Positions 24,415 through 62,556 of a DNA stretch of 64,000 bases are shown in pieces. Source of the stretch: Candidatus Woesearchaeota archaeon. GTDB lineage: Archaea > Nanobdellota > Nanobdellia > SCGC-AAA011-G17 > JACPNG01. Below the pieces are notes generated by a model. That model saw nothing but the letters and a program-made list of their open reading frames with translations. It was not told where the DNA came from and did not search any database. A program made the translations under genes and the position numbers. The stretch covers positions 7,103 through 71,102 of the forward strand of contig JACPNG010000015.1 in NCBI GenBank assembly GCA_016185605.1, in the 5' to 3' direction. The number at the start of each line of letters is the position of its first letter. Position 1 is the stretch's first letter.

Positions 24415-24501
24415 GGGCCTGTAACTCAGTTTGGATAGAGTGTCAGCCTTCTAAACAATGAAGTGAGCTGAAAGTCCGGGGTTCAAATCCTCGCAGGCCC
24501 G
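24415..24501 (+). tRNA. tRNA-Arg (anticodon UCU) with a short (about 12-nt) intron adjacent to the anticodon loop
   Basis: Acceptor GGGCCTG/CAGGCCC. D-arm ACTC-AGTTTGGATA-GAGT. Anticodon stem TCAGC/GCTGA with loop CTTCTAA plus inserted acaatgaagtga (CTTC/GAAG pairing suggests a relaxed BHB). T-arm CGGGG-TTCAAAT-CCTCG. No encoded CCA. Confidence 0.75.
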
Positions 24502-24550: not shown

Positions 24551-24657
24551 GCGCAGGTGCCCAAGCGGTCTAAGGGGACCGATCATCTTATGATGAGTCC
24601 AAGCTGCAAAATATTGTAGACCCCGGTTTATCGCAGGTTCGAATCCTGCCCTGCGCT
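24551..24657 (+). tRNA. tRNA gene with about 35-nt insertion, isotype unresolved (class-II-like D-arm)
   Basis: Perfect 7-bp acceptor GCGCAGG/CCTGCGC. T-arm GCAGG-TTCGAAT-CCTGC. D-arm CCC-AAGCGGTCTAAG-GGG (Leu/Ser-like). The region between the D- and T-arms is about 60 nt and contains the hairpin TCATC-TTAT-GATGA. The anticodon could not be fixed by eye. Confidence 0.6.
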
Positions 24658-46763: not shown

Positions 46764-47861
46764 ATGAAATCGTGGCATATCTGGGATTTTCCGGATAATA
46801 TTTATATCTCTCTAAAAAGACAGGCTCATAAAGAATTTTTCAGAGAAATGTTTATAGAGTATGGGGGAAAAAGAGCGTATGCTAGATTCTTAGGTTTATC
46901 ACAAACCGCTGTAAAACAGCATTGGAGAGGTTACAGCAAAAAAGGCGGAAGATTATACACACAGTGTATACCTCTCTGGGTTCTAAAAAAATCTTGTAAA
47001 ACAAATAGACTTAAAAGAAAAATCGAGAATAATATAAATCTAATAAAAGGGTCAAATAAATCAAATCCAATAACAAACCCAAAATTGCCAATAGAAGAGA
47101 ATCCAGAATTGTATAGAATAACTGCACATATGATAGCAGATGGTAGTGCGCCTAGAAATAAGGTTCCTTATTATTCAAATACTTCAAAAGTTTTAAGGGA
47201 ACAATTTAAGAAGGATTTAAAGATATTTGGAAAGATGAGAGTTTATGACTCTAAATTAACAATTCCTATTGTTTACTTTCCAAAAATATTAACTGATATA
47301 TTGTCCCATATACTTAATGTGAGATTTTCTTTCCCAAATAGACTACCAAGTGAAACTTTCAAAGCTACAGAAGAATGTAAAAGAGCATTTTTACAGGCTT
47401 TATTTGATGACGAAGGTTATATATCAACCGGTCTATGCATAAGTATGTCTAATTTAAAGGTAATAAAACAGATAAAAAAATTATTAAAAGCTATAGAAGT
47501 AGAAACCAATAAAATAGGGATAAAAAGGCAAAAATATAGGAAGAATAATTTTATCATAAATGTGAAAAAAAAGCACTATAAAAGATTTGATGAAAAAGTT
47601 GGATTTTCCCATCCAGAGAAATCTAGAAATTTAAAATTTGCATTAAAGACTCTTAATAGAAAAATAAGAACAAGAGACCCATATATAATTAAAGAAGAAA
47701 TTTTAAAATATTTAAGAAGAAAACCTATGAAAACTTTAGAATTAGCTAATAACATACAACTTAGTTTAGGACATTGTTTAAGACACTTAAAAAGCATTGA
47801 AAAGATGGGTGATATAGAAAGAACTGGATTTAAAAATAAGATAATTTGGTATCTTCCCTAA
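46764..47861 (+). CDS. free-standing LAGLIDADG homing-endonuclease-like protein with flanking HTH domains (second copy of this architecture)
   Basis: 365 aa. LAGLIDADG-type motifs ITAHMIADGSA and LQALFDDEGYIS. C-terminal wHTH-like region. Confidence 0.65.
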   Translation: MKSWHIWDFPDNIYISLKRQAHKEFFREMFIEYGGKRAYARFLGLSQTAVKQHWRGYSKKGGRLYTQCIPLWVLKKSCKTNRLKRKIENNINLIKGSNKSNPITNPKLPIEENPELYRITAHMIADGSAPRNKVPYYSNTSKVLREQFKKDLKIFGKMRVYDSKLTIPIVYFPKILTDILSHILNVRFSFPNRLPSETFKATEECKRAFLQALFDDEGYISTGLCISMSNLKVIKQIKKLLKAIEVETNKIGIKRQKYRKNNFIINVKKKHYKRFDEKVGFSHPEKSRNLKFALKTLNRKIRTRDPYIIKEEILKYLRRKPMKTLELANNIQLSLGHCLRHLKSIEKMGDIERTGFKNKIIWYLP

Positions 47862-48421
47862 GGTCTTACCCATTCCACATTGTAATAAGTAACATCATTC
47901 TCATCATCAACAATGCCTATTAATAATCTCTTTCTTGTGCTATGAGCAACTCTATTCTTAGCTGAGAATTCATACCAAGTGGACACACTAGCTTCATGGA
48001 CAGGATATAAAATCCATTTCGCATGATCATCTCCAGGCTTGACTCCCCTGTCATAAACCCTGAAATCAGCCCCAAATTTTAGAGCAGTTTTTACTATATA
48101 GCCCCTATTTCTCATATCCCTAAATACAACATACCTTATCCAGAAATTTGGCTCTACTTCTCGAGCCTTTTTAATAAAATCATCGGCATTAATCTTCTTA
48201 TTTTTATTATCTAGAATATCCATTCTCTTTTTTTCTAATAAATATAAGGCTTCTACCAAAGAATAATAGAATTTTCCCTCCTGCAATTCGCCAAACTTGC
48301 TTTGGTTATGGAGTTCCCTAGATTCATTATTCTCTTCGGCCACAACTTTTTCATTAGAGAATATAGCGCTTATTTTATTTGTTATTTCCTTGGGTTTTTC
48401 CTTTTTCTCTGCCATAGCCAA
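47858..48421 (-). CDS. endA: tRNA-splicing endonuclease (EndA)
   Basis: 187 aa. GYIVKTALKFGADFRVY...HAKWILYP...VAHSTRKRLLIG catalytic-domain motifs. Confidence 0.75.
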   Translation of the reverse strand: MAMAEKKEKPKEITNKISAIFSNEKVVAEENNESRELHNQSKFGELQEGKFYYSLVEALYLLEKKRMDILDNKNKKINADDFIKKAREVEPNFWIRYVVFRDMRNRGYIVKTALKFGADFRVYDRGVKPGDDHAKWILYPVHEASVSTWYEFSAKNRVAHSTRKRLLIGIVDDENDVTYYNVEWVRP

Positions 48422-48463: not shown

Positions 48464-49354
48464 ATGGAACTGATATTTTTAGGAACTAGCTCAATGATAC
48501 CGACTGAGGACAGAAATCACTTTTCTAATTTATTATTGTACAAAGATGAGGGAATATTGGTTGACTGCGGGGAAAATACTCAAAGACAATTAAGGATAGC
48601 AAAAATCCCAGTCACAAAAATTACAAAAATACTAATAACTCACTGGCATGGCGACCATGTTCTGGGATTGCCCGGAGTATTGCAAAGTTTGGAAAAGCAC
48701 CAGTATAATAAAAGTCTAGAAATATACGGGCCAAAAGGATCTAAAAAATATTTTAGCCATATGTTCAGGGGATTTGATTATAGAATAAAAATAAAATACA
48801 AGTTAGTTGAAGTTAATAAAAGAATCTTCTTCAAAAATAATGATTTTAGTCTAGAGGCGTTAAAACTAGACCATAGCATTCCTTGCTTGGGATATTCATT
48901 TATAGAAAATGATAGAAGAAAGATTAATATGGAATATCTGAAAAAATTTAGTCTAAAATCCCATCCAATTATAAAAAAATTACAGCAAGGCAAAGATATA
49001 ATCTGGAAGGGCAAAAAAATTAAAGCTAAATTATCCACAAGCTTAAAAGAAGGCAAGAAAATAGCATTCATAACAGACACAAGAGTATGCGATAATATAC
49101 TGAAATTGACAAAAAACTCAGATATTATTGTTTCTGAAGCCACATTTAGGGAGGATTTCGAGGAGAAAGCTAAATTATATAAACACTTAACCACAAAACA
49201 GGCGGCATTAATAGCAAAAAAATCAACTGCAAAAAGATTAATCTTAACTCATTTCAGCCAGAGATATAAAGATTTAGAAGAATTGAAGAAAGAGGCTTCT
49301 AAAATATTTTATAATGTTTATATAGCAGAGGATTTTATGAGGATATCACTTTAA
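48464..49354 (+). CDS. rnz: ribonuclease Z (tRNA 3' endonuclease, metallo-beta-lactamase fold)
   Basis: Track ORF starts at 48302 with an implausible hydrophobic leader. The real start is probably MELIFLGTSS at 48464. ITHWHGDH motif. Confidence 0.8.
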   Translation: MELIFLGTSSMIPTEDRNHFSNLLLYKDEGILVDCGENTQRQLRIAKIPVTKITKILITHWHGDHVLGLPGVLQSLEKHQYNKSLEIYGPKGSKKYFSHMFRGFDYRIKIKYKLVEVNKRIFFKNNDFSLEALKLDHSIPCLGYSFIENDRRKINMEYLKKFSLKSHPIIKKLQQGKDIIWKGKKIKAKLSTSLKEGKKIAFITDTRVCDNILKLTKNSDIIVSEATFREDFEEKAKLYKHLTTKQAALIAKKSTAKRLILTHFSQRYKDLEELKKEASKIFYNVYIAEDFMRISL

Positions 49355-52542: not shown

Positions 52543-52556
52543 TATTTAAATAAAAT
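52543..52556 (+). promoter_or_regulatory. candidate TATA box for tRNA-Leu
   Basis: atttaaataaaa about 20-30 nt upstream of the tRNA 5' end. Confidence 0.25.
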
Positions 52557-52573: not shown

Positions 52574-52694
52574 GCGGGGATGCCGGAGTGGCCAAACGGG
52601 TTGGGCTTAGGACCCAATGGCTTAGTGCCTACACAGGTTCGAATATCAGAATCGAGGTTCCGATACCTCCTGAAAGAAAGTCCTGTTCCCCGCA
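52574..52694 (+). tRNA. tRNA-Leu (anticodon UAG), class II, with a 37-nt insertion (non-canonical intron) in the T-arm
   Basis: Acceptor GCGGGGA/TCCCCGC. D-arm CCG-GAGTGGCCAAA-CGG. Anticodon arm TTGGG-CTTAGGA-CCCAA. Variable arm TGGCTTAGTGCCTAC. T-stem ACAGG + TTCGAAT. Then 52645..52681 inserted (contains its own hairpin GAGGT-TCCGAT-ACCTC). Then CCTGT. Confidence 0.75.
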
Positions 52695-55323: not shown

Positions 55324-58300
55324 TTAAGTAATTTTTATCTCTAATTTTTCATTTATTTTATCTACATATTTATTTGATACTGGAATATTTTTACTTCTTA
55401 AATCATCTAATGCTGTAGGACCCATATTATAAGCTATCAAAGCTAATCTTAAATCATTCCTATATCTATTTTTAAGATAATATAGATAACATGTGCCTGC
55501 ATTTATATTCTGTTGAGGATCTTTGTATACATCATTAAATTCTAGATCCCCACAATGTTTAGAACTAGCTTTAGTTTTCATATCAGTTATTGTGATTGGT
55601 CTCAGTTGCATTAACCCACAATCCTCTCCATTACAAACCTCTGGTTTCCAACTAGATTCTTCAGTTATTATTGCTATTATTAAACTCTTATCAATTCCAT
55701 ATGTATTACTAGCTTGTTCAATTATTGGAAGATATTTTTCAATCTTCGAACGATAAGATACAAGTACTGATTCTTTTACCCCCTCTATTGTTGTTAATTT
55801 TTCATCTGGCTTTTCTGAAGATATTAGATTAGATGTTTGACTAAGTTTTATTATATCTCCCCTACTTAAAGATAGACAAGAATTAGGAATTGAGACTGGA
55901 TTGGTTGGAATATAACATTTTTTATCTTCATTATAATTATAAACCCCTTCATTAATTGTTTGTAAAGGTACATCCAAAGCAACATATGCCTTAGTTCTAG
56001 CTATTATTGGTTGTTTTTTATAAAAGATGGGTAACCATTTATTCTCTAAGTCTCTTAAATAATTATTTCCAATATCAATTATGGTTGTTATTTCTATCTC
56101 TTTAGTTTCTATATTACATCTAGCATATCCAAGATTACATATGGGTATAAGTTTTATTAATTCCTTTAACTCCATGCCTTCAAAGTCTTTAGTAAAACAT
56201 CTTTTTCTTACATCATCCCAATCACATCTATTAAAACCACATCTATCTAATGGTTCTAATAAATCTAATTGTCTTTCTTCATAATCACCAAGACAAGCTA
56301 ATTTTCTATTTTCATCACCTTGAACCTTATTATAATCTTCACACGATTTTATATCATCACACGAATTACATAAATTACTAATTAAACCACCAAATCCATA
56401 ATAATAACATTTTTGATTATTACCATCTATCTTCTTACATTCATTATAATTACAATATTTAAAATCGTAATATGTACCACCACATTGATTACATTGTAAT
56501 TGAGTTTGTTGTAGTGTAGTAGTTTCAGATGATGATTTTGTAGATGTTACATCTTTCCGTTTTTCTTGTTGTATATCATCTACATAATTTGGAGGTCTAT
56601 AATCTTCAACAGTAGAAGTTTCATCTATTTTTGTCGGTTCTTTCAATATTTTAGAAAATTCATCTTGTTTTATTTCTATCCATTCTCCCTGGCTGTATTT
56701 ATAATATCTTAATTCATCATATTCAGTAGTAAGTATAGAAGTTGCAATTATATTTTCTGTATTAATGGAGTTCTGTAAAATTTTTATATTTTCATTTAAT
56801 CCTGTTACATCTGTAGTTAAAGTTTCTCCTTCTTTACCACATATCTCGCCTTTAGAAACATCTTTATAAGTCAATCCACAAAAACAAGATTTTTCACAAG
56901 TTTCCGGGCATTTAACTTGATTAGTATCATAAACTCCTTCCCCATAATCATAAGCAAATAATCCAGGACAACTTTCTGTACTAGTTTTTGTTTGGCCTCC
57001 AGTCTGTGTTACTAATCCAGATTTCCTCCTAAACTTACCCCATTCTTCATATGTTTCTCCTAATCTAAAAGTGGCCTTGGCTGCTATATTTGGAATTAGA
57101 GTATTGCTTGCTTTTTTGTACATCTCAACAAGGCTTCTAAATCCCTCTTCAGTTGGATTATTTAGCACATCATCCAATAAATAGCCAGCATCAGTCAATA
57201 TTCCATCAGCCTCCTGCTGCGATAATATATTAAGATTTATTATTCCTTCTTCAGCTAATTTAGTCTGTAGATTCTTTAATTCTACTTGAGTTGTATTTCT
57301 AAGCTCTACATCCTTTATCAGCTTGCTTAGGGCTGGCCTGTATAGCCAGCAGGTTCCTAAATCTCTTCCCTTATCATCTATTCCGCAGCTTCCTACTTCT
57401 ACCCATGTCTGTGTATTTACCCCGATTCCAGGATTAAATCCAGAGCATCTCCTTATTATTCCAGTTTCCACTAATCCAGTTGAGAAGCTTCCTACACCAG
57501 CTACCAGAGGATTAATACTCCCTCCAAATTTTCCGCCACCAGTATAATCTAATGTAGATAATCTTCCTGTCTGTGGAACACATTCCTCAGCTGATTTAAT
57601 CTGTTTTTTCGCTTCGCTGGCTGTATAAATATCGCTTAATTTATTCAATCCAAAATCAGTTGTTACTTTGCCAAATCCGCATTCATTTATTCTAGTTGTT
57701 TTTCCTTTTATCTCAACACATACCTCATTATAGCCAGCTAACTGGACAAAATCATCATTCTGCTGGTTAAATCTTCCAGCATCCAATCTTTTATTCCTTA
57801 TAATAAAGAAGAACGGCAAGTAGCTTTGTCCTAGTTCATTAACTCCCTTTAGATAAACACTATAAGTTACTGGCTCATTAGCCCCTGCATAAATATGATG
57901 AAATACACTATATTGGTTTTCTTTGGCCCTTCCTACCTCTGAATAAGGCAATGTATCAAAAAATGCTATAAACTGAGGAGGGCTTACTGGCCTTGTTATC
58001 TGGTCAAAGAATCCCTCTCCAGGCAGTTTTCCTCCAATAAAAGACTTGCAAATTTCCGTTCCAATCTCATCTAAACTCCCTCCAGAATAAGCTGCAAACA
58101 CATTCTTTGCATAATCCTGGGTAAAGAATTTTAATGAATTTATCGAAGTGTCTATTGAATTTTTAAAGTTTGCATATTCTCCCCCGCCTTTCCCAGTATC
58201 AAATACTTTCTCGCTTAAAAAGTCAAATATTCCTCCTTTAATATTAAATATTGCTACCCCCTCTCTCCATAAAATATCACAAACATAAAGGTTTCTTACT

Positions 58301-61300
58301 CTATCACATATCCCAACAGATTCTCCCTTGACTTTTTGGACATTCAGACATTCACTATATCCCTGCAGCATTGATTTTATATTTTGAAGTCCAGCTAATA
58401 ATCCTGTAATGCATACTGGCACAGCAACTTCTCCTCCAGCTAGAACAGAATTTGGAGCGCATAATGCTAGACTTCCTATAATTCCAGTCTGGGCAACATT
58501 AGCAACCTGCCATTTTCCATTTAAATTGCATCTTGAGCTTGGACACATTACTGGATCACAAGCATTAAACAATAATCTACAGTCTTCTGGAGACATAAAA
58601 TCAACGCAGCTTTTTCCTATTTCTGTTACTTGAACATTTTCCTTAGAATAACCGCACTTTAGACGAGCTCCTGTCTCAAGATTACTTCTGCTTAATTCTT
58701 TGTTGCAGGTGTTAACTTTTCCCATCAAATTACCCAGTTCTTTGCAATCTTGTTCACTAACAACATCCTGTCTTTTGAATACATCCCCTCTATAATTACA
58801 GATTTGTCTGACAGAATTTAAATCCCCCATGCTTACTCCAGTTCCTAAAGGTCCATTTGGTAATGTTCTCTTAAATATAGTTACATCTTTAGCAGCTCCT
58901 GAGGCTGTATATTCTAATTGCGCATATAACAAAGAGCTAATAGTAATAGAATCAACTTTTCCCTTGTTTCTTCCCTCATTTAATATTGATAATTTATTAA
59001 TGGGCTTGACTTGCTGTGTTCTTTGATCTCCAAATACAACCGGGTCACAGCCTGTTGGTCTTTTAACAAAATATTTTGCTGTTTTTGATTTATCATCGAT
59101 ATTTATATCTGTATTAAGTCTTTGGTTGTCATCGTTACAACTACTATCTTTATATAATATATATGAATTATATCCATCTTGAAGTTTACGTATATCTGTA
59201 GTTGGATCTTTTACAACTGAATATTTACTTAAGATAGTTGGACCAAATCCAATAGACTTAACAAATTGTGTATTCCTAATATAATCAAAAGCATTATCTA
59301 TACATTTCTTAACTTGATTGCATTTCCGCCCTATTTCATTTCTTAATCCTTCATTTATAGTTATATCTCCAGAGAATTCTCTATTTTTGTCTCCATAGAA
59401 ATATTCGGCCAGTTGTTGTCCTTTTAATCTATTATTATATGTAGATAAGATTTGGGCTTGATTTGCCGAATATTCTGTTTCATCTTTAACTATAATTCCT
59501 ACTTTATTTAAATCATCCCTAATTTCGCTGAACTTTTTTTTAGAGATATCTCTTGTTTTATCATCTATATAAGCTAATCTTATGTTTTTTTCAGAATCTA
59601 GATATTTATCATAATACCTATTTGGATCATAGCCATACATTCCTTTAGTAAAGCAGTAATCCTTAATAGTATCCTTACTCTTGTCAGATGTAAATTGAAT
59701 ATTTATTGGTAGATCACACGTGGCTCCACCTTGTATAGAATCAACTATATTTTGTGCAGCCTCTATATCATTGCCATACCTGTCAGAATTTTTAATTACA
59801 AAATTATCGAATGTCCCTACATTTTCTCCTCTCGCCTTTGCCTCTCTATATTCATCTACCCATTTATCCCTTATTTTTTCTCTGGCTATTCCCTCATTGC
59901 TGAACACTCCTTGTATTAAATTCTTTGACCATAATGCTCCAAAAGTAACATAGCAGAAATTAATCCAGAATTTGTGGATTTTTTCCATATTTTTTATTAA
60001 TGAATCAACTTTGTCTATTAATTTCTTTGTTTTGTTTATTTCATCATCTAGATTGCTGCTGAATATAGATGGCCTTATTGCCCTTTTTTCAATGTCTATA
60101 TGCAGATTAAAATTAGATTCGCTGAATGCATTTTCTGAGTCAGGAATTATAGATATATAGACTTCTTTTTTTGCTTCTACGCTTTTGACTCTAACTTTAA
60201 TGAACTTATCCTTGTCTTTTCCAGTTGAAACTGATCTCAAATTATTTGTTAATGTTATTCTTTCAAACGTTGTTGCTCTTTGCTGGGAAGTTGATAAAGG
60301 ATTTTCATAATCTCTTCTGATAACAACAGAATTTCTGCTTATTGATTCTACCCTCCATAAATATCCTGGATCATAAATATCATAAAGTGCTTCTCCTGTT
60401 GTTAGCCTTTTATCTATCCCGTTTATTTCTAATACTGCTTTTGGCTTGTCTTGATCAGAAGCTTTGTTAATCTCCAATAGTTGAACTCTTATTATCTCTC
60501 CATTATCCTCTAAATCCTGGGCTTTAGACTTAAAGTTTAATGATGATCTTATATTATTGATTCTATTTTCTATGTCTTGTTTTTCTTTGGAAGAAAATCT
60601 AGGATCATTCAGCAACTCCTCATAACTTCTTAGTGCATTTTCATCATTCCCCAAAAAATAATTAATTAATGCTATTCTTTCCTTGGCTTTGACAGCAAAA
60701 ACTTGGTTATCATCATCCCTCTCATCTGGATAATTCCTTATCAATTCAGTATAAGTCTGTGTTGCTAAATTGAATAAATCAGCATAACCTTGCGGTTCTG
60801 TTTTAGATTCTTTTGTTGAATATCTTGCTGCAGAATCAGTATTAATAAAATCAACAATCTCTGTCATTACAGCATTAATCTCCCTGCTTTTTTCAGGATT
60901 TGAATATGATTGTTCTCTACTTAATCTTTCTAAATCGGAAAATATTCTTTTCTGTAAAAAGTTAGTTGCTTCTTGTTTAGTAGACTCTCCTACATTACTT
61001 TGTATAATTAATCCTTTTAATTGTGCAACCATATCTTTTATAGATTCCAGATATAATGCGGTTTCTGGACTATTTTTGTCTAATCCTTCATATTTCAATT
61101 TTATTGCTTCAAAATTTATTTCTTCAGGTCTTGATGGAATGCAGCATATTTGATTATTCAATTCTAATTCAGTAGCTCCTTCAAATGTGCTACATCCAAC
61201 ACTTTCTCCTTCACCAATTTCCTTCTTACCAGAAGGGCATATTAGTGAGTCTTCACAAGTTCCACCAGCATTTTTACAAGCATCTTGTCCTGTTAAAATC

Positions 61301-62556
61301 CTAGTCTTACAACTATTTTCTTTATATTCACATAACTTATCAGAATTGCATTCACTTTTATCTTTTATTATCTCACATGTTTTTCTTGATTGACACTTAT
61401 CACCTACTTGGAAACAACTATTTTCCTTAGAGCATTGTGCTGTAGTAAGGCTTTCACAATCTACTTTAGTTATTGGAAATTTTACAGTCTTTCCATTTAA
61501 TCTGTTTCTTAATACTAATTCCCTGTCCTTGTCATTATTGCTGAAAGTTATATCTCTAACAATCCAGTTTGAGCCTGGATATAATGTGCTTCCTTTGGTT
61601 AATATTTTTTTAGAAAATTCATTTCCCCTATACACTTCAACTTTAGCTTTGTCGCTTAAATCTCTTATGCTGTTTACTCTTATTCTAAAGCTGTCAAATA
61701 AATTTCCAAATCTAGAATAGCCTCCTCTTAAAGTAAATCCCCTTGTTGCTCCTTGTCTTATTTCTATTGGCGCACTTAATGGATTTAGATTATCATCATA
61801 GACAACAAACACAGCGCTATTATCTTTTATTTCTTGTGCTCTTATATAACCGCCAAAGAAATTATGCTGCTCTTTTTCCTCCAGCCATTTTAATTCATCT
61901 TGTTCTATTAAAATATCCTCGCTAGGCCCATATCCTAATCCTTGAGAAACATCAAAATTAATCCTTGTTTCTATTTCAATGTCAATCTCACTAGGAACAT
62001 CAGCTTCCTTGGGAATCCTTCTTATTGGAATAACTAAATATCCTAGATTATTGTAGGTTGGATCAATCCTATATTGAGAGGATCCATATGCCCCTGGCTT
62101 TAATATCCCCCCAGAAGGTGGAAAATATCTTATGGCTCCAATATTTACTTTTTTTCCATCTGGCTTTGTTGTAACATTCAATATTCTAGGAGAGGTAATT
62201 CCTCTTATCCTTGGTATTGTAATTGAGGGATTAGAAGGGAGTCCAACTAATAATGCCTTTATATTAACATCATTTTGCTCTAATAAAGCAGATCTAACTT
62301 GTCTAGGCTCATAATAATCTGCGCTTACTACAATATCCTCCCCAAGATTTCTCTCCTCTCCAGCCCCTAAGGTTATTCTTTCTCCAGATAAGTCATATCC
62401 TAATCTTAATCTGGGATCTCCTAGATTTCTGTCATATCTTGGATCTAGATAATCACTTAATGTTCTTGGATTTAATGTCTGGGCATTTACCAAAGTAAAT
62501 GAAATATTGCTGAATATCAATAATGCTATAATAAATACAGCTAATTGCTTTTTCAT
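55324..62556 (-). CDS. giant secreted protein (2410 aa) with Cys-rich central regions and a C-terminal lytic transglycosylase (SLT, lysozyme-like) domain
   Basis: Signal peptide MKKQLAVFIIALLIFSNISFTLVNAQT. C-terminal SLIIAIITEESSWKPEVCNGEDCGLMQL...AGTCYLYYL...ALIAYNMGP is the SLT family-1 motif set. 4-nt overlap with the upstream gene. Confidence 0.8.
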   Translation of the reverse strand: MKKQLAVFIIALLIFSNISFTLVNAQTLNPRTLSDYLDPRYDRNLGDPRLRLGYDLSGERITLGAGEERNLGEDIVVSADYYEPRQVRSALLEQNDVNIKALLVGLPSNPSITIPRIRGITSPRILNVTTKPDGKKVNIGAIRYFPPSGGILKPGAYGSSQYRIDPTYNNLGYLVIPIRRIPKEADVPSEIDIEIETRINFDVSQGLGYGPSEDILIEQDELKWLEEKEQHNFFGGYIRAQEIKDNSAVFVVYDDNLNPLSAPIEIRQGATRGFTLRGGYSRFGNLFDSFRIRVNSIRDLSDKAKVEVYRGNEFSKKILTKGSTLYPGSNWIVRDITFSNNDKDRELVLRNRLNGKTVKFPITKVDCESLTTAQCSKENSCFQVGDKCQSRKTCEIIKDKSECNSDKLCEYKENSCKTRILTGQDACKNAGGTCEDSLICPSGKKEIGEGESVGCSTFEGATELELNNQICCIPSRPEEINFEAIKLKYEGLDKNSPETALYLESIKDMVAQLKGLIIQSNVGESTKQEATNFLQKRIFSDLERLSREQSYSNPEKSREINAVMTEIVDFINTDSAARYSTKESKTEPQGYADLFNLATQTYTELIRNYPDERDDDNQVFAVKAKERIALINYFLGNDENALRSYEELLNDPRFSSKEKQDIENRINNIRSSLNFKSKAQDLEDNGEIIRVQLLEINKASDQDKPKAVLEINGIDKRLTTGEALYDIYDPGYLWRVESISRNSVVIRRDYENPLSTSQQRATTFERITLTNNLRSVSTGKDKDKFIKVRVKSVEAKKEVYISIIPDSENAFSESNFNLHIDIEKRAIRPSIFSSNLDDEINKTKKLIDKVDSLIKNMEKIHKFWINFCYVTFGALWSKNLIQGVFSNEGIAREKIRDKWVDEYREAKARGENVGTFDNFVIKNSDRYGNDIEAAQNIVDSIQGGATCDLPINIQFTSDKSKDTIKDYCFTKGMYGYDPNRYYDKYLDSEKNIRLAYIDDKTRDISKKKFSEIRDDLNKVGIIVKDETEYSANQAQILSTYNNRLKGQQLAEYFYGDKNREFSGDITINEGLRNEIGRKCNQVKKCIDNAFDYIRNTQFVKSIGFGPTILSKYSVVKDPTTDIRKLQDGYNSYILYKDSSCNDDNQRLNTDINIDDKSKTAKYFVKRPTGCDPVVFGDQRTQQVKPINKLSILNEGRNKGKVDSITISSLLYAQLEYTASGAAKDVTIFKRTLPNGPLGTGVSMGDLNSVRQICNYRGDVFKRQDVVSEQDCKELGNLMGKVNTCNKELSRSNLETGARLKCGYSKENVQVTEIGKSCVDFMSPEDCRLLFNACDPVMCPSSRCNLNGKWQVANVAQTGIIGSLALCAPNSVLAGGEVAVPVCITGLLAGLQNIKSMLQGYSECLNVQKVKGESVGICDRVRNLYVCDILWREGVAIFNIKGGIFDFLSEKVFDTGKGGGEYANFKNSIDTSINSLKFFTQDYAKNVFAAYSGGSLDEIGTEICKSFIGGKLPGEGFFDQITRPVSPPQFIAFFDTLPYSEVGRAKENQYSVFHHIYAGANEPVTYSVYLKGVNELGQSYLPFFFIIRNKRLDAGRFNQQNDDFVQLAGYNEVCVEIKGKTTRINECGFGKVTTDFGLNKLSDIYTASEAKKQIKSAEECVPQTGRLSTLDYTGGGKFGGSINPLVAGVGSFSTGLVETGIIRRCSGFNPGIGVNTQTWVEVGSCGIDDKGRDLGTCWLYRPALSKLIKDVELRNTTQVELKNLQTKLAEEGIINLNILSQQEADGILTDAGYLLDDVLNNPTEEGFRSLVEMYKKASNTLIPNIAAKATFRLGETYEEWGKFRRKSGLVTQTGGQTKTSTESCPGLFAYDYGEGVYDTNQVKCPETCEKSCFCGLTYKDVSKGEICGKEGETLTTDVTGLNENIKILQNSINTENIIATSILTTEYDELRYYKYSQGEWIEIKQDEFSKILKEPTKIDETSTVEDYRPPNYVDDIQQEKRKDVTSTKSSSETTTLQQTQLQCNQCGGTYYDFKYCNYNECKKIDGNNQKCYYYGFGGLISNLCNSCDDIKSCEDYNKVQGDENRKLACLGDYEERQLDLLEPLDRCGFNRCDWDDVRKRCFTKDFEGMELKELIKLIPICNLGYARCNIETKEIEITTIIDIGNNYLRDLENKWLPIFYKKQPIIARTKAYVALDVPLQTINEGVYNYNEDKKCYIPTNPVSIPNSCLSLSRGDIIKLSQTSNLISSEKPDEKLTTIEGVKESVLVSYRSKIEKYLPIIEQASNTYGIDKSLIIAIITEESSWKPEVCNGEDCGLMQLRPITITDMKTKASSKHCGDLEFNDVYKDPQQNINAGTCYLYYLKNRYRNDLRLALIAYNMGPTALDDLRSKNIPVSNKYVDKINEKLEIKIT

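Follow-up and report, generated by a model that had tools for sequence, protein, structure and literature searches.

Results

An interrupted gene for tRNA-Leu(UAG)

Positions 52574 to 52694, on the forward strand, read as a class II tRNA-Leu(UAG) gene whose T-loop is split by 37 nucleotides. The gene lies in a window of 64,000 nucleotides (by window we mean the whole stretch of DNA that was analysed), and its features are the following, each with the evidence by which it was placed:

52545-52552 (+): putative TATA box of archaeal type, TTTAAATA, lying 22-29 nt before the mature 5' end (reading of the sequence)
52574-52643 (+): 5' exon, positions 1-59 of the tRNA (ARAGORN on the spliced sequence, partial Rfam tRNA match, alignment to intron-less orthologues)
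52644-52680 (+): intron of 37 nt at position 59/60, UAUCAGAAUCGAGGUUCCGAUACCUCCUGAAAGAAAG (absent from syntenic orthologues with identical flanks; BHB geometry)
52681-52694 (+): 3' exon, U60, CCUGU, UCCCCGC and A73 (sequence, ARAGORN, alignment)

Read in order, the gene gives GCGGGGA UG CCG GAGUGGCCAAA CGG G UUGGG CUUAGGA CCCAA UGGCUUAGUGCCUAC, followed by ACAGG UUCGAAU, the 37 nt, and CCUGU UCCCCGC A. The 5' exon thus carries the 5' strand of the acceptor stem, the D-arm, the anticodon arm, the variable arm, the T-stem strand ACAGG and nucleotides U54 to A59, while the 3' end of the gene does not encode CCA. The variable arm of 15 nt with its stem GGC/GCC, the nucleotide A73 and the anticodon UAG are those of a class II tRNA-Leu.

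As it stands in the genome, the unspliced locus is called neither by ARAGORN in its default mode nor by Rfam at the gathering threshold, other tRNAs of the window being called; Rfam in E-value mode finds the 5' two-thirds of the locus only, with 21.9 bits, the threshold being 29. Without these 37 nt, the sequence is recognised by ARAGORN as a tRNA-Leu(tag) of 85 nt in which the cloverleaf is restored, with an acceptor stem of 7 bp, a long variable arm, the T-arm ACAGG/TTCGAAT/CCTGT and A73. The preliminary description of this DNA, which had proposed an interrupted tRNA-Leu(UAG) with all its canonical elements present, is borne out by this call. The predicted mature junction is ...UUCGAA/UCCUGU, or in a longer form ...GGUUCGAA/UCCUGUUCCCCGCA(CCA), the slash marking here and below the place of a cut or junction. 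There is no second tRNA-Leu(UAG) in the 64-kb window, and the missed gene may be the sole decoder of CUA in its genome. The tRNAs of DPANN are under-counted by standard finders, and this locus, which both ARAGORN and Rfam miss, illustrates why.

Upstream of the gene, the TATA-like box probably has the role of a promoter: A/T boxes (TTATTTAAAT, ATATTTAAATA, TTTTTAAATA) are also found about 22-33 nt upstream of the orthologous tRNA at the related loci L133-L136, L046 and L062.

Two other tRNA loci of the window can be mentioned here. At 24415-24501 (+) lies a tRNA-Arg(UCU) interrupted at the canonical position 37/38 by an intron of 12 nt, which has a perfect central helix of 4 bp (CUUC/GAAG) and no inner stem, so that its motif is a relaxed one of the bulge-helix-loop type; it is missed by default ARAGORN and found by Rfam and by ARAGORN -i. 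A further candidate, a tRNA "Val(CAC)" with an insertion of 35 nt, is put forward at 24551-24657 (+) when ARAGORN is run in intron mode. It has no Rfam match, shows a C at position 37, U73, a D-arm resembling that of class II and an internal hairpin UCAUC-UUAU-GAUGA, and may be a multi-intron tRNA; if it is real, three of the five tRNA genes of the window bear introns. Further along, at 55324-62556 (-), a Cys-rich secreted or surface protein of 2410 aa is encoded; to the eye, its C-terminal region resembles a lytic-transglycosylase domain. DPANN genomes typically encode such large surface proteins.

Limits of the intron and splice motif

The preliminary description had placed the insert at 52645..52681. 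Its length of 37 nt holds; its limits can be written in two ways, 52645-52681 and 52644-52680, which yield the same mature RNA because a U flanks both junctions. We set the intron at 59/60 (52644-52680) because the geometry of the BHB motif requires this assignment. In this motif an outer helix is followed by a strand of 4 nt, a bulge cut after its second base and an inner stem, after which come another strand of 4 nt, a second bulge, likewise cut after its second base, and the outer helix again (PMC3239211, PMC6379350). The corresponding elements are here:

52638-52641 (+): central helix, exon strand U54 U55 C56 G57 (pairs with 52675-52678)
52642-52645 (+): 5' splice-site loop, A58 A59 / U plus an extra A (threaded by hand on the local fold)
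52646-52673 (+): inner intron stem-loop h' (MFE and centroid fold)
52675-52678 (+): central helix, intron strand AGAA (frame analysis)
52679-52681 (+): 3' splice-site bulge A G / U60 (exactly 3 nt from the central helix to the 3' strand of the T-stem)

The T-stem provides the outer helix, with five of its five pairs formed, and the 3' bulge (AG/U) is clean. The steps of the central helix are U54-A, U55-A and C56-G, followed by a non-standard fourth, G57.A. On the 5' side, the extra A52645 stands opposite A52674 and separates the bulge from the stem UCAG/CUGA, which forms the inner stem h' together with the 4-nt bulge AAUC and the hairpin GAGGU-UCCGAU-ACCUC (52654-52669). The motif is therefore relaxed (hBH-like), the 5' site lying in a 4x1 internal loop and not in a clean 3-nt bulge. 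The preliminary description had suggested a BHB or hBH motif across the boundaries of the insert: a BHB-like motif does form there, in a relaxed form only, while the strict hBHBh' (3-4-3) fails both at its fourth pair, replaced by G57.A, and at the 5' site. On this modelled geometry, the 5' cut would fall after 52643 and the 3' cut is predicted after 52680.

The local fold, which reads ACAGG, 8 nt, UCAG, bulge AAUC, GAGGU, loop UCCGAU, ACCUC, CUGA, 8 nt, CCUGU, has an energy of -15.2 kcal/mol, and the fold of the T-arm with its insert is better than that of shuffled sequences, at z = -2.08 (4 of 200 shuffles are equally good). The central helix is plausible without being predicted by the fold itself, because the nearest-neighbour energy is -41.7 kcal/mol with it and -42.6 without it, a difference of 0.9 kcal/mol against the helix. 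The unconstrained minimum, at -46.4, is not a cloverleaf. Other registers of the central helix were tried (UGAA taken from CUGAAA, and the GUUC/GAAC shift in the Thermoplasmata genes described below) and rejected: they give wrong bulges or a broken inner stem, and they also fail to restore a T-loop of 7 nt. A C/D-box or a K-turn in the intron was rejected too, by eye only: CUGA is present, with no C box and no tandem G.A.

Introns at 59/60 in other tRNA-Leu(UAG) genes

Position 59/60 is among the listed non-canonical intron positions (PMC4090602). We scanned one genome per species for the anticodon loop of tRNA-Leu(UAG) followed by a T-loop, 21-51 extra bases and CCCCGCA. At least 120 loci answered this pattern; among the matches listed, four were false positives (L001, L064, L068, L107) and 116 were true. 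Most of the true ones come from Thermoplasmata MAGs, and the others from Woesearchaeota/Nanoarchaeia (L008, L041, L046, L062, L067), from L112, from an Atabeyarchaeia chromosome (L069) and from a Nitrososphaerales MAG (L105). In each of the 116 matches listed, the T-stem is paired at five positions out of five, the bases opposite U54, U55 and C56 are R, R and G, and these partners stand exactly 3 nt before the 3' strand of the T-stem. Position 57 is paired in 18 of the 116 and faces a purine-purine mismatch in the rest.

Statistics were calculated on the 41 distinct 24-nt cores found among the matches listed, which come from more than 110 archaeal genomes. The 59/60 frame is kept in every one of these cores: the first three pairs are standard in 41/41 and the fourth in 13/41, and the third base of the 3' bulge is U60 in 40/41. 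Over all cores, 92.4% of the cells pair; sliding the frame by -1 brings this value down to 65.6%, sliding it by +1 to 54.6%, and none of 500 shuffles reaches the observed value. The pattern of the scan left these intron bases free, and hence the pairing is an independent confirmation of the frame. The preliminary description had regarded introns at 59/60 as rare. This does not apply to tRNA-Leu(UAG), for which at least 120 genomes were matched in one scan: in this tRNA the 59/60 intron is very widespread.

More than 100 of the Thermoplasmata MAGs (most of the loci L002-L120, for instance L061 at 1653-1740) have a GC-rich 59/60 intron of about 35-40 nt; A57 stands opposite G in nearly all of these genes, and most of them have a second insertion, in the D-region. 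A scan of metagenomes with a T-arm pattern gave four loci, two of which are odd and unrelated: at L122 2100-2163 (-) and L124 1317-1380 (+), a T-arm with an insert is matched, and the upstream sequence (...GCAGGCTAAGGACACTGCT...) shows no recognisable body of a tRNA-Leu. These two places may hold tRNAs that have been heavily disrupted, or the matches may be due to chance.

The same locus in relatives

The S8e protein encoded beside the locus has 100% identity to an NCBI protein of a Candidatus Woesearchaeota archaeon, carried on a contig of 97 kb. In the nearest relatives, the gene order TFB - small ORF - S8e - LSm - L37e - tRNA-Leu(UAG) is conserved. Three states of the tRNA are found at this syntenic place. 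Firstly, the orthologues of L126, L129 and L133-L136 have no intron: their T-arm is ACAGG or GCAGG, TTCGAAT, CCTGT, and in their alignment with the window the sole gap is the insert, with identical flanks on both sides (junction ACAGGTTCGAAT/CCTGT). Secondly, L046, L062 and L067 have an intron at 59/60, of a sequence unrelated to the present one and with a perfect intron strand CGAA or CGGA; introns homologous to the present one occur in L041, L121 and L123. Thirdly, L127 (about 217-329, -) and L128 (about 1353-1465, -), which belong to the closest relatives (their S8e shows 78% identity), lack an insert at 59/60 and carry one of about 29 nt in the region of the anticodon stem; the intron-less L126 and L129 carry the same S8e protein as these two sister contigs. 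A locus in which the intron is absent, present at 59/60 or present elsewhere is useful for studies of intron gain and loss.

Between relatives, the exons show compensatory changes, such as 27-43 U-A becoming C-G and changes in the stem of the variable arm, and these changes indicate selection on the tRNA. By comparison of these sequences, the intron is a gain-or-loss character of a conserved and evidently functional gene. An exact-protein look-up of L37e gave no match, and that of LSm gave one, on a 1.6-kb contig which stops short of the tRNA. In a marine relative (L130 and L131, 690-1520), S8e-LSm-L37e is kept with no tRNA-Leu downstream; the space downstream is occupied by direct repeats (atggcgtataa) and three ORFs, of which one is small, one codes for a PemK-like toxin and one is LAGLIDADG-like.

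The splicing endonuclease

About 4 kb from the tRNA-Leu locus, the window encodes a candidate for the enzyme of this intron:

47858-48421 (-): tRNA-splicing endonuclease EndA (PF01974, 3.4e-27; PF02778, 5.7e-12)

The protein has 187 aa from a TTG start (185 aa at NCBI, as "tRNA-intron lyase"; P0121 is 100% identical). The EndA gene that the preliminary description had assigned to these coordinates is confirmed by the Pfam tRNA_int_endo and N-terminal domains, by matches in the PDB and by an aligned catalytic triad. The PDB matches are 3IEY_A (1.1e-35), the alpha subunit of Nanoarchaeum equitans, over the C-terminal domain only, and 1A79_A (1.1e-33), the enzyme of Methanocaldococcus jannaschii. 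The triad is intact, Y123/H133/K164 aligning with Y115/H125/K156 of M. jannaschii; over residues 16-187 the alignment with the M. jannaschii subunit is collinear, and in it DADGD stands against an acidic L10-like loop, DDEND. A single unit with N- and C-terminal domains and Tyr, His and Lys in place has the layout of the alpha4 type. Between Tyr and His the spacer has 9 residues (DRGVKPGDD) against 15 in 3IEY_A, the lysine-rich insert of 6 residues of the N. equitans type being absent; the 9-residue spacer DRGxKPGxD is found in 120 of the 120 closest EndA homologues (65-100% identity, 176-238 aa). On either side of the gene stand two other ORFs. One, at 46764-47861 (+), encodes 365 aa with a LAGLIDADG_3 domain and a C-terminal ArsR-like HTH, and ends at the convergent stop codon of EndA with an overlap of 4 bp; the other, at 48473-49354, just upstream of the EndA start and on the other strand, encodes an RNase Z-like metallo-beta-lactamase.

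The EndA of the window is presumably the enzyme that would remove the 59/60 intron. The difficulty is that, according to the literature, strict motifs are required by alpha4 and alpha'2 enzymes, relaxed ones being accepted by those of the (alpha-beta)2 and epsilon2 types (PMC3239211, PMC6379350); the Thermoplasma-type EndA (alpha'2) in particular is described in the literature as one of narrow specificity. One way out, which is possible though on the whole unlikely, is that the EndA of the window is the catalytic alpha of a heterotetramer whose structural beta is encoded elsewhere, the complex giving the broad specificity that a relaxed motif calls for. The best PDB match is indeed the alpha of the (alpha-beta)2 enzyme of N. 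equitans, and relaxed motifs have been tied to (alpha-beta)2 and epsilon2 enzymes in the two papers just cited. However, the N-terminal domain of the protein is complete and the acidic DDEND loop is retained, as in the self-sufficient subunit of M. jannaschii, while the alpha of N. equitans has lost both; tblastn finds no second EndA-like ORF in the 64-kb window; and enzymes of the alpha4 type were reported by Kaneta et al. from several lineages of DPANN in which many tRNAs are disrupted (PMC5829648). We suggest, very tentatively, that this clade of Woesearchaeota/Nanoarchaeia may rely on a single-unit EndA like that of M. jannaschii, without the insert of the N. equitans type, which would then have to handle two relaxed motifs, the present 59/60 intron with its G.A step and large 5' loop and the 37/38 intron of tRNA-Arg, which has no inner stem. 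If this is true, broad substrate specificity would have arisen in yet another way, not described so far, and the conserved DRGxKPGxD element near the active site would be a candidate for it. Relaxed motifs together with an EndA devoid of the N. equitans-type insert thus raise a small question of enzyme-substrate co-evolution.

The inner hairpin of the intron

The hairpin GAGGT-TCCGAT-ACCTC, which the preliminary description had seen in the insert, is there, at 52654-52669. Its interpretation as a mimic of the T-arm, coming from a pseudo-duplication or serving as a regulatory decoy, is not supported by the comparisons which follow. We conclude from the sequence that GAGGU-UCCGAU-ACCUC is probably just the inner stem that a BHB intron usually has.

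That the hairpin is the relic of a duplicated T-arm, or a decoy with a role of its own (for instance in binding the enzymes that modify the T-loop), seems to us very improbable. It does resemble the T-arm at 14 aligned positions (AGGTTCCGATACCT against AGGTT-CGAATCCT), and L041 and L121 share all of its 16 nt despite about 10 differences in the exons; moreover, a true tandem duplication of 18 nt in the T-arm exists in the tRNA-Leu(UAG) of another member of the Woesearchaeota, L064. Yet the score of the best local alignment of the hairpin with its own T-arm, 7, is reached by 301 of 5000 shuffled sequences (p about 0.06), and the loop has 6 nt instead of the 7 nt of the true T-loop. L123 alters the loop to UCAGAU and turns one pair into U.G, the syntenic relatives with a 59/60 intron, like other lineages, bear unrelated hairpins, the window holds no second copy at up to 3 mismatches, and a stem is demanded here by the BHB architecture (h') in any case.

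The shuffle test being not significant, we regard an origin by duplication of the T-arm as unlikely, and no observation speaks for a decoy function. The hairpin was rejected as the real T-arm of the tRNA, on account of its 6-nt loop and of the absence of an acceptor strand after it. Mobile copies of the intron were rejected in the same way: no second hairpin is present in the window, and among the fetched loci only L041, L121 and L123 have it. As to L064 (about 1559-1630, +), a Woesearchaeota MAG, it was a false positive of our scan: the T-arm of its tRNA-Leu(UAG) is crossed by an exact 18-nt tandem duplication (TTCGGCGGTTCGAATCCG twice), in which no BHB frame is formed.

Discussion

Taken together, these observations lead us to read 52574-52694 as what is, with a probability of roughly 0.9, a functional class II tRNA-Leu(UAG) gene of a Candidatus Woesearchaeota genome, whose 59/60 intron would be cut by EndA and whose exons would then be ligated. 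In the precursor, the T-stem ACAGG/CCUGU would act as the outer helix, and the central helix would consist of the pairs of U54, U55 and C56 with GAA of the intron and of a fourth step in which G57 faces A. Of the two splice sites, the 3' one would lie in the 3-nt bulge A G / U60 and the 5' one, A58 A59 / U, in a slightly enlarged internal loop closed by the stem UCAG/CUGA and the hairpin GAGGU...ACCUC. Cleavage by EndA (47858-48421) after A59 and before U60, followed by ligation of the exons by an RNA ligase, would restore the 7-nt T-loop UUCGAAU. It is from the sequence that we infer both that cleavage and ligation occur and that they occur at exactly these bonds.

That the locus would be a disrupted tRNA pseudogene, in which the 37 nt are junk that is never removed, we find scarcely credible, for the failure of the standard tRNA finders, the imperfection of the BHB and the lack of the insert in the closest syntenic relatives are opposed by the integrity of every cloverleaf stem with compensatory changes between relatives, by the position of the insert in the exact frame of a splice motif kept across many lineages (in all 41 distinct cores among the matches listed), by a homologous intron beside diverged exons in L041, L121 and L123, by the lack of another tRNA-Leu(UAG) in the window and by the conservation of the promoter-like box.

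Comparison with known systems

The closest system that has been described is the pre-tRNA-Cys(GCA) of ARMAN-2, whose 13-nt intron of the hBH type at 59/60 is cut in vitro by the organism's own EndA (PMC3239211). The two introns share the site in the T-loop, the T-stem as outer helix, a central helix built on nucleotides 54-57, U60 as third base of the 3' bulge, a relaxed motif and a DPANN host. They differ in the tRNA, here Leu(UAG) and not Cys, in their length, 37 nt and not 13, and in the inner stem, which is here in two parts. They also differ in the enzyme: ARMAN-2 has a three-unit epsilon2 EndA and its cleavage has been demonstrated, whereas here the EndA is a single unit of about 185 aa and cleavage is predicted.

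With respect to the canonical BHB intron at 37/38, the geometry is the same and has been moved to the T-arm, the intron standing between bases 6 and 7 of the loop. Position 59/60 mirrors 37/38, since a stem of 5 bp and a loop of 7 nt make up the T-arm as well as the anticodon arm. The motif departs from the strict hBHBh' at 37/38 by the G.A at its fourth step and by its larger 5' bulge. The enzyme belongs by sequence to the same fold family as the alpha4 EndA of M. jannaschii (1A79) and the alpha subunit of N. equitans (3IEY_A), with which its triad aligns; unlike the latter, it has no lysine-rich insert, and its spacer has 9 residues as in M. jannaschii and not 15.

Finally we must note that the class of T-loop introns at 59/60 is already known, and that the present locus is a further example of it, in a different tRNA and a different lineage.
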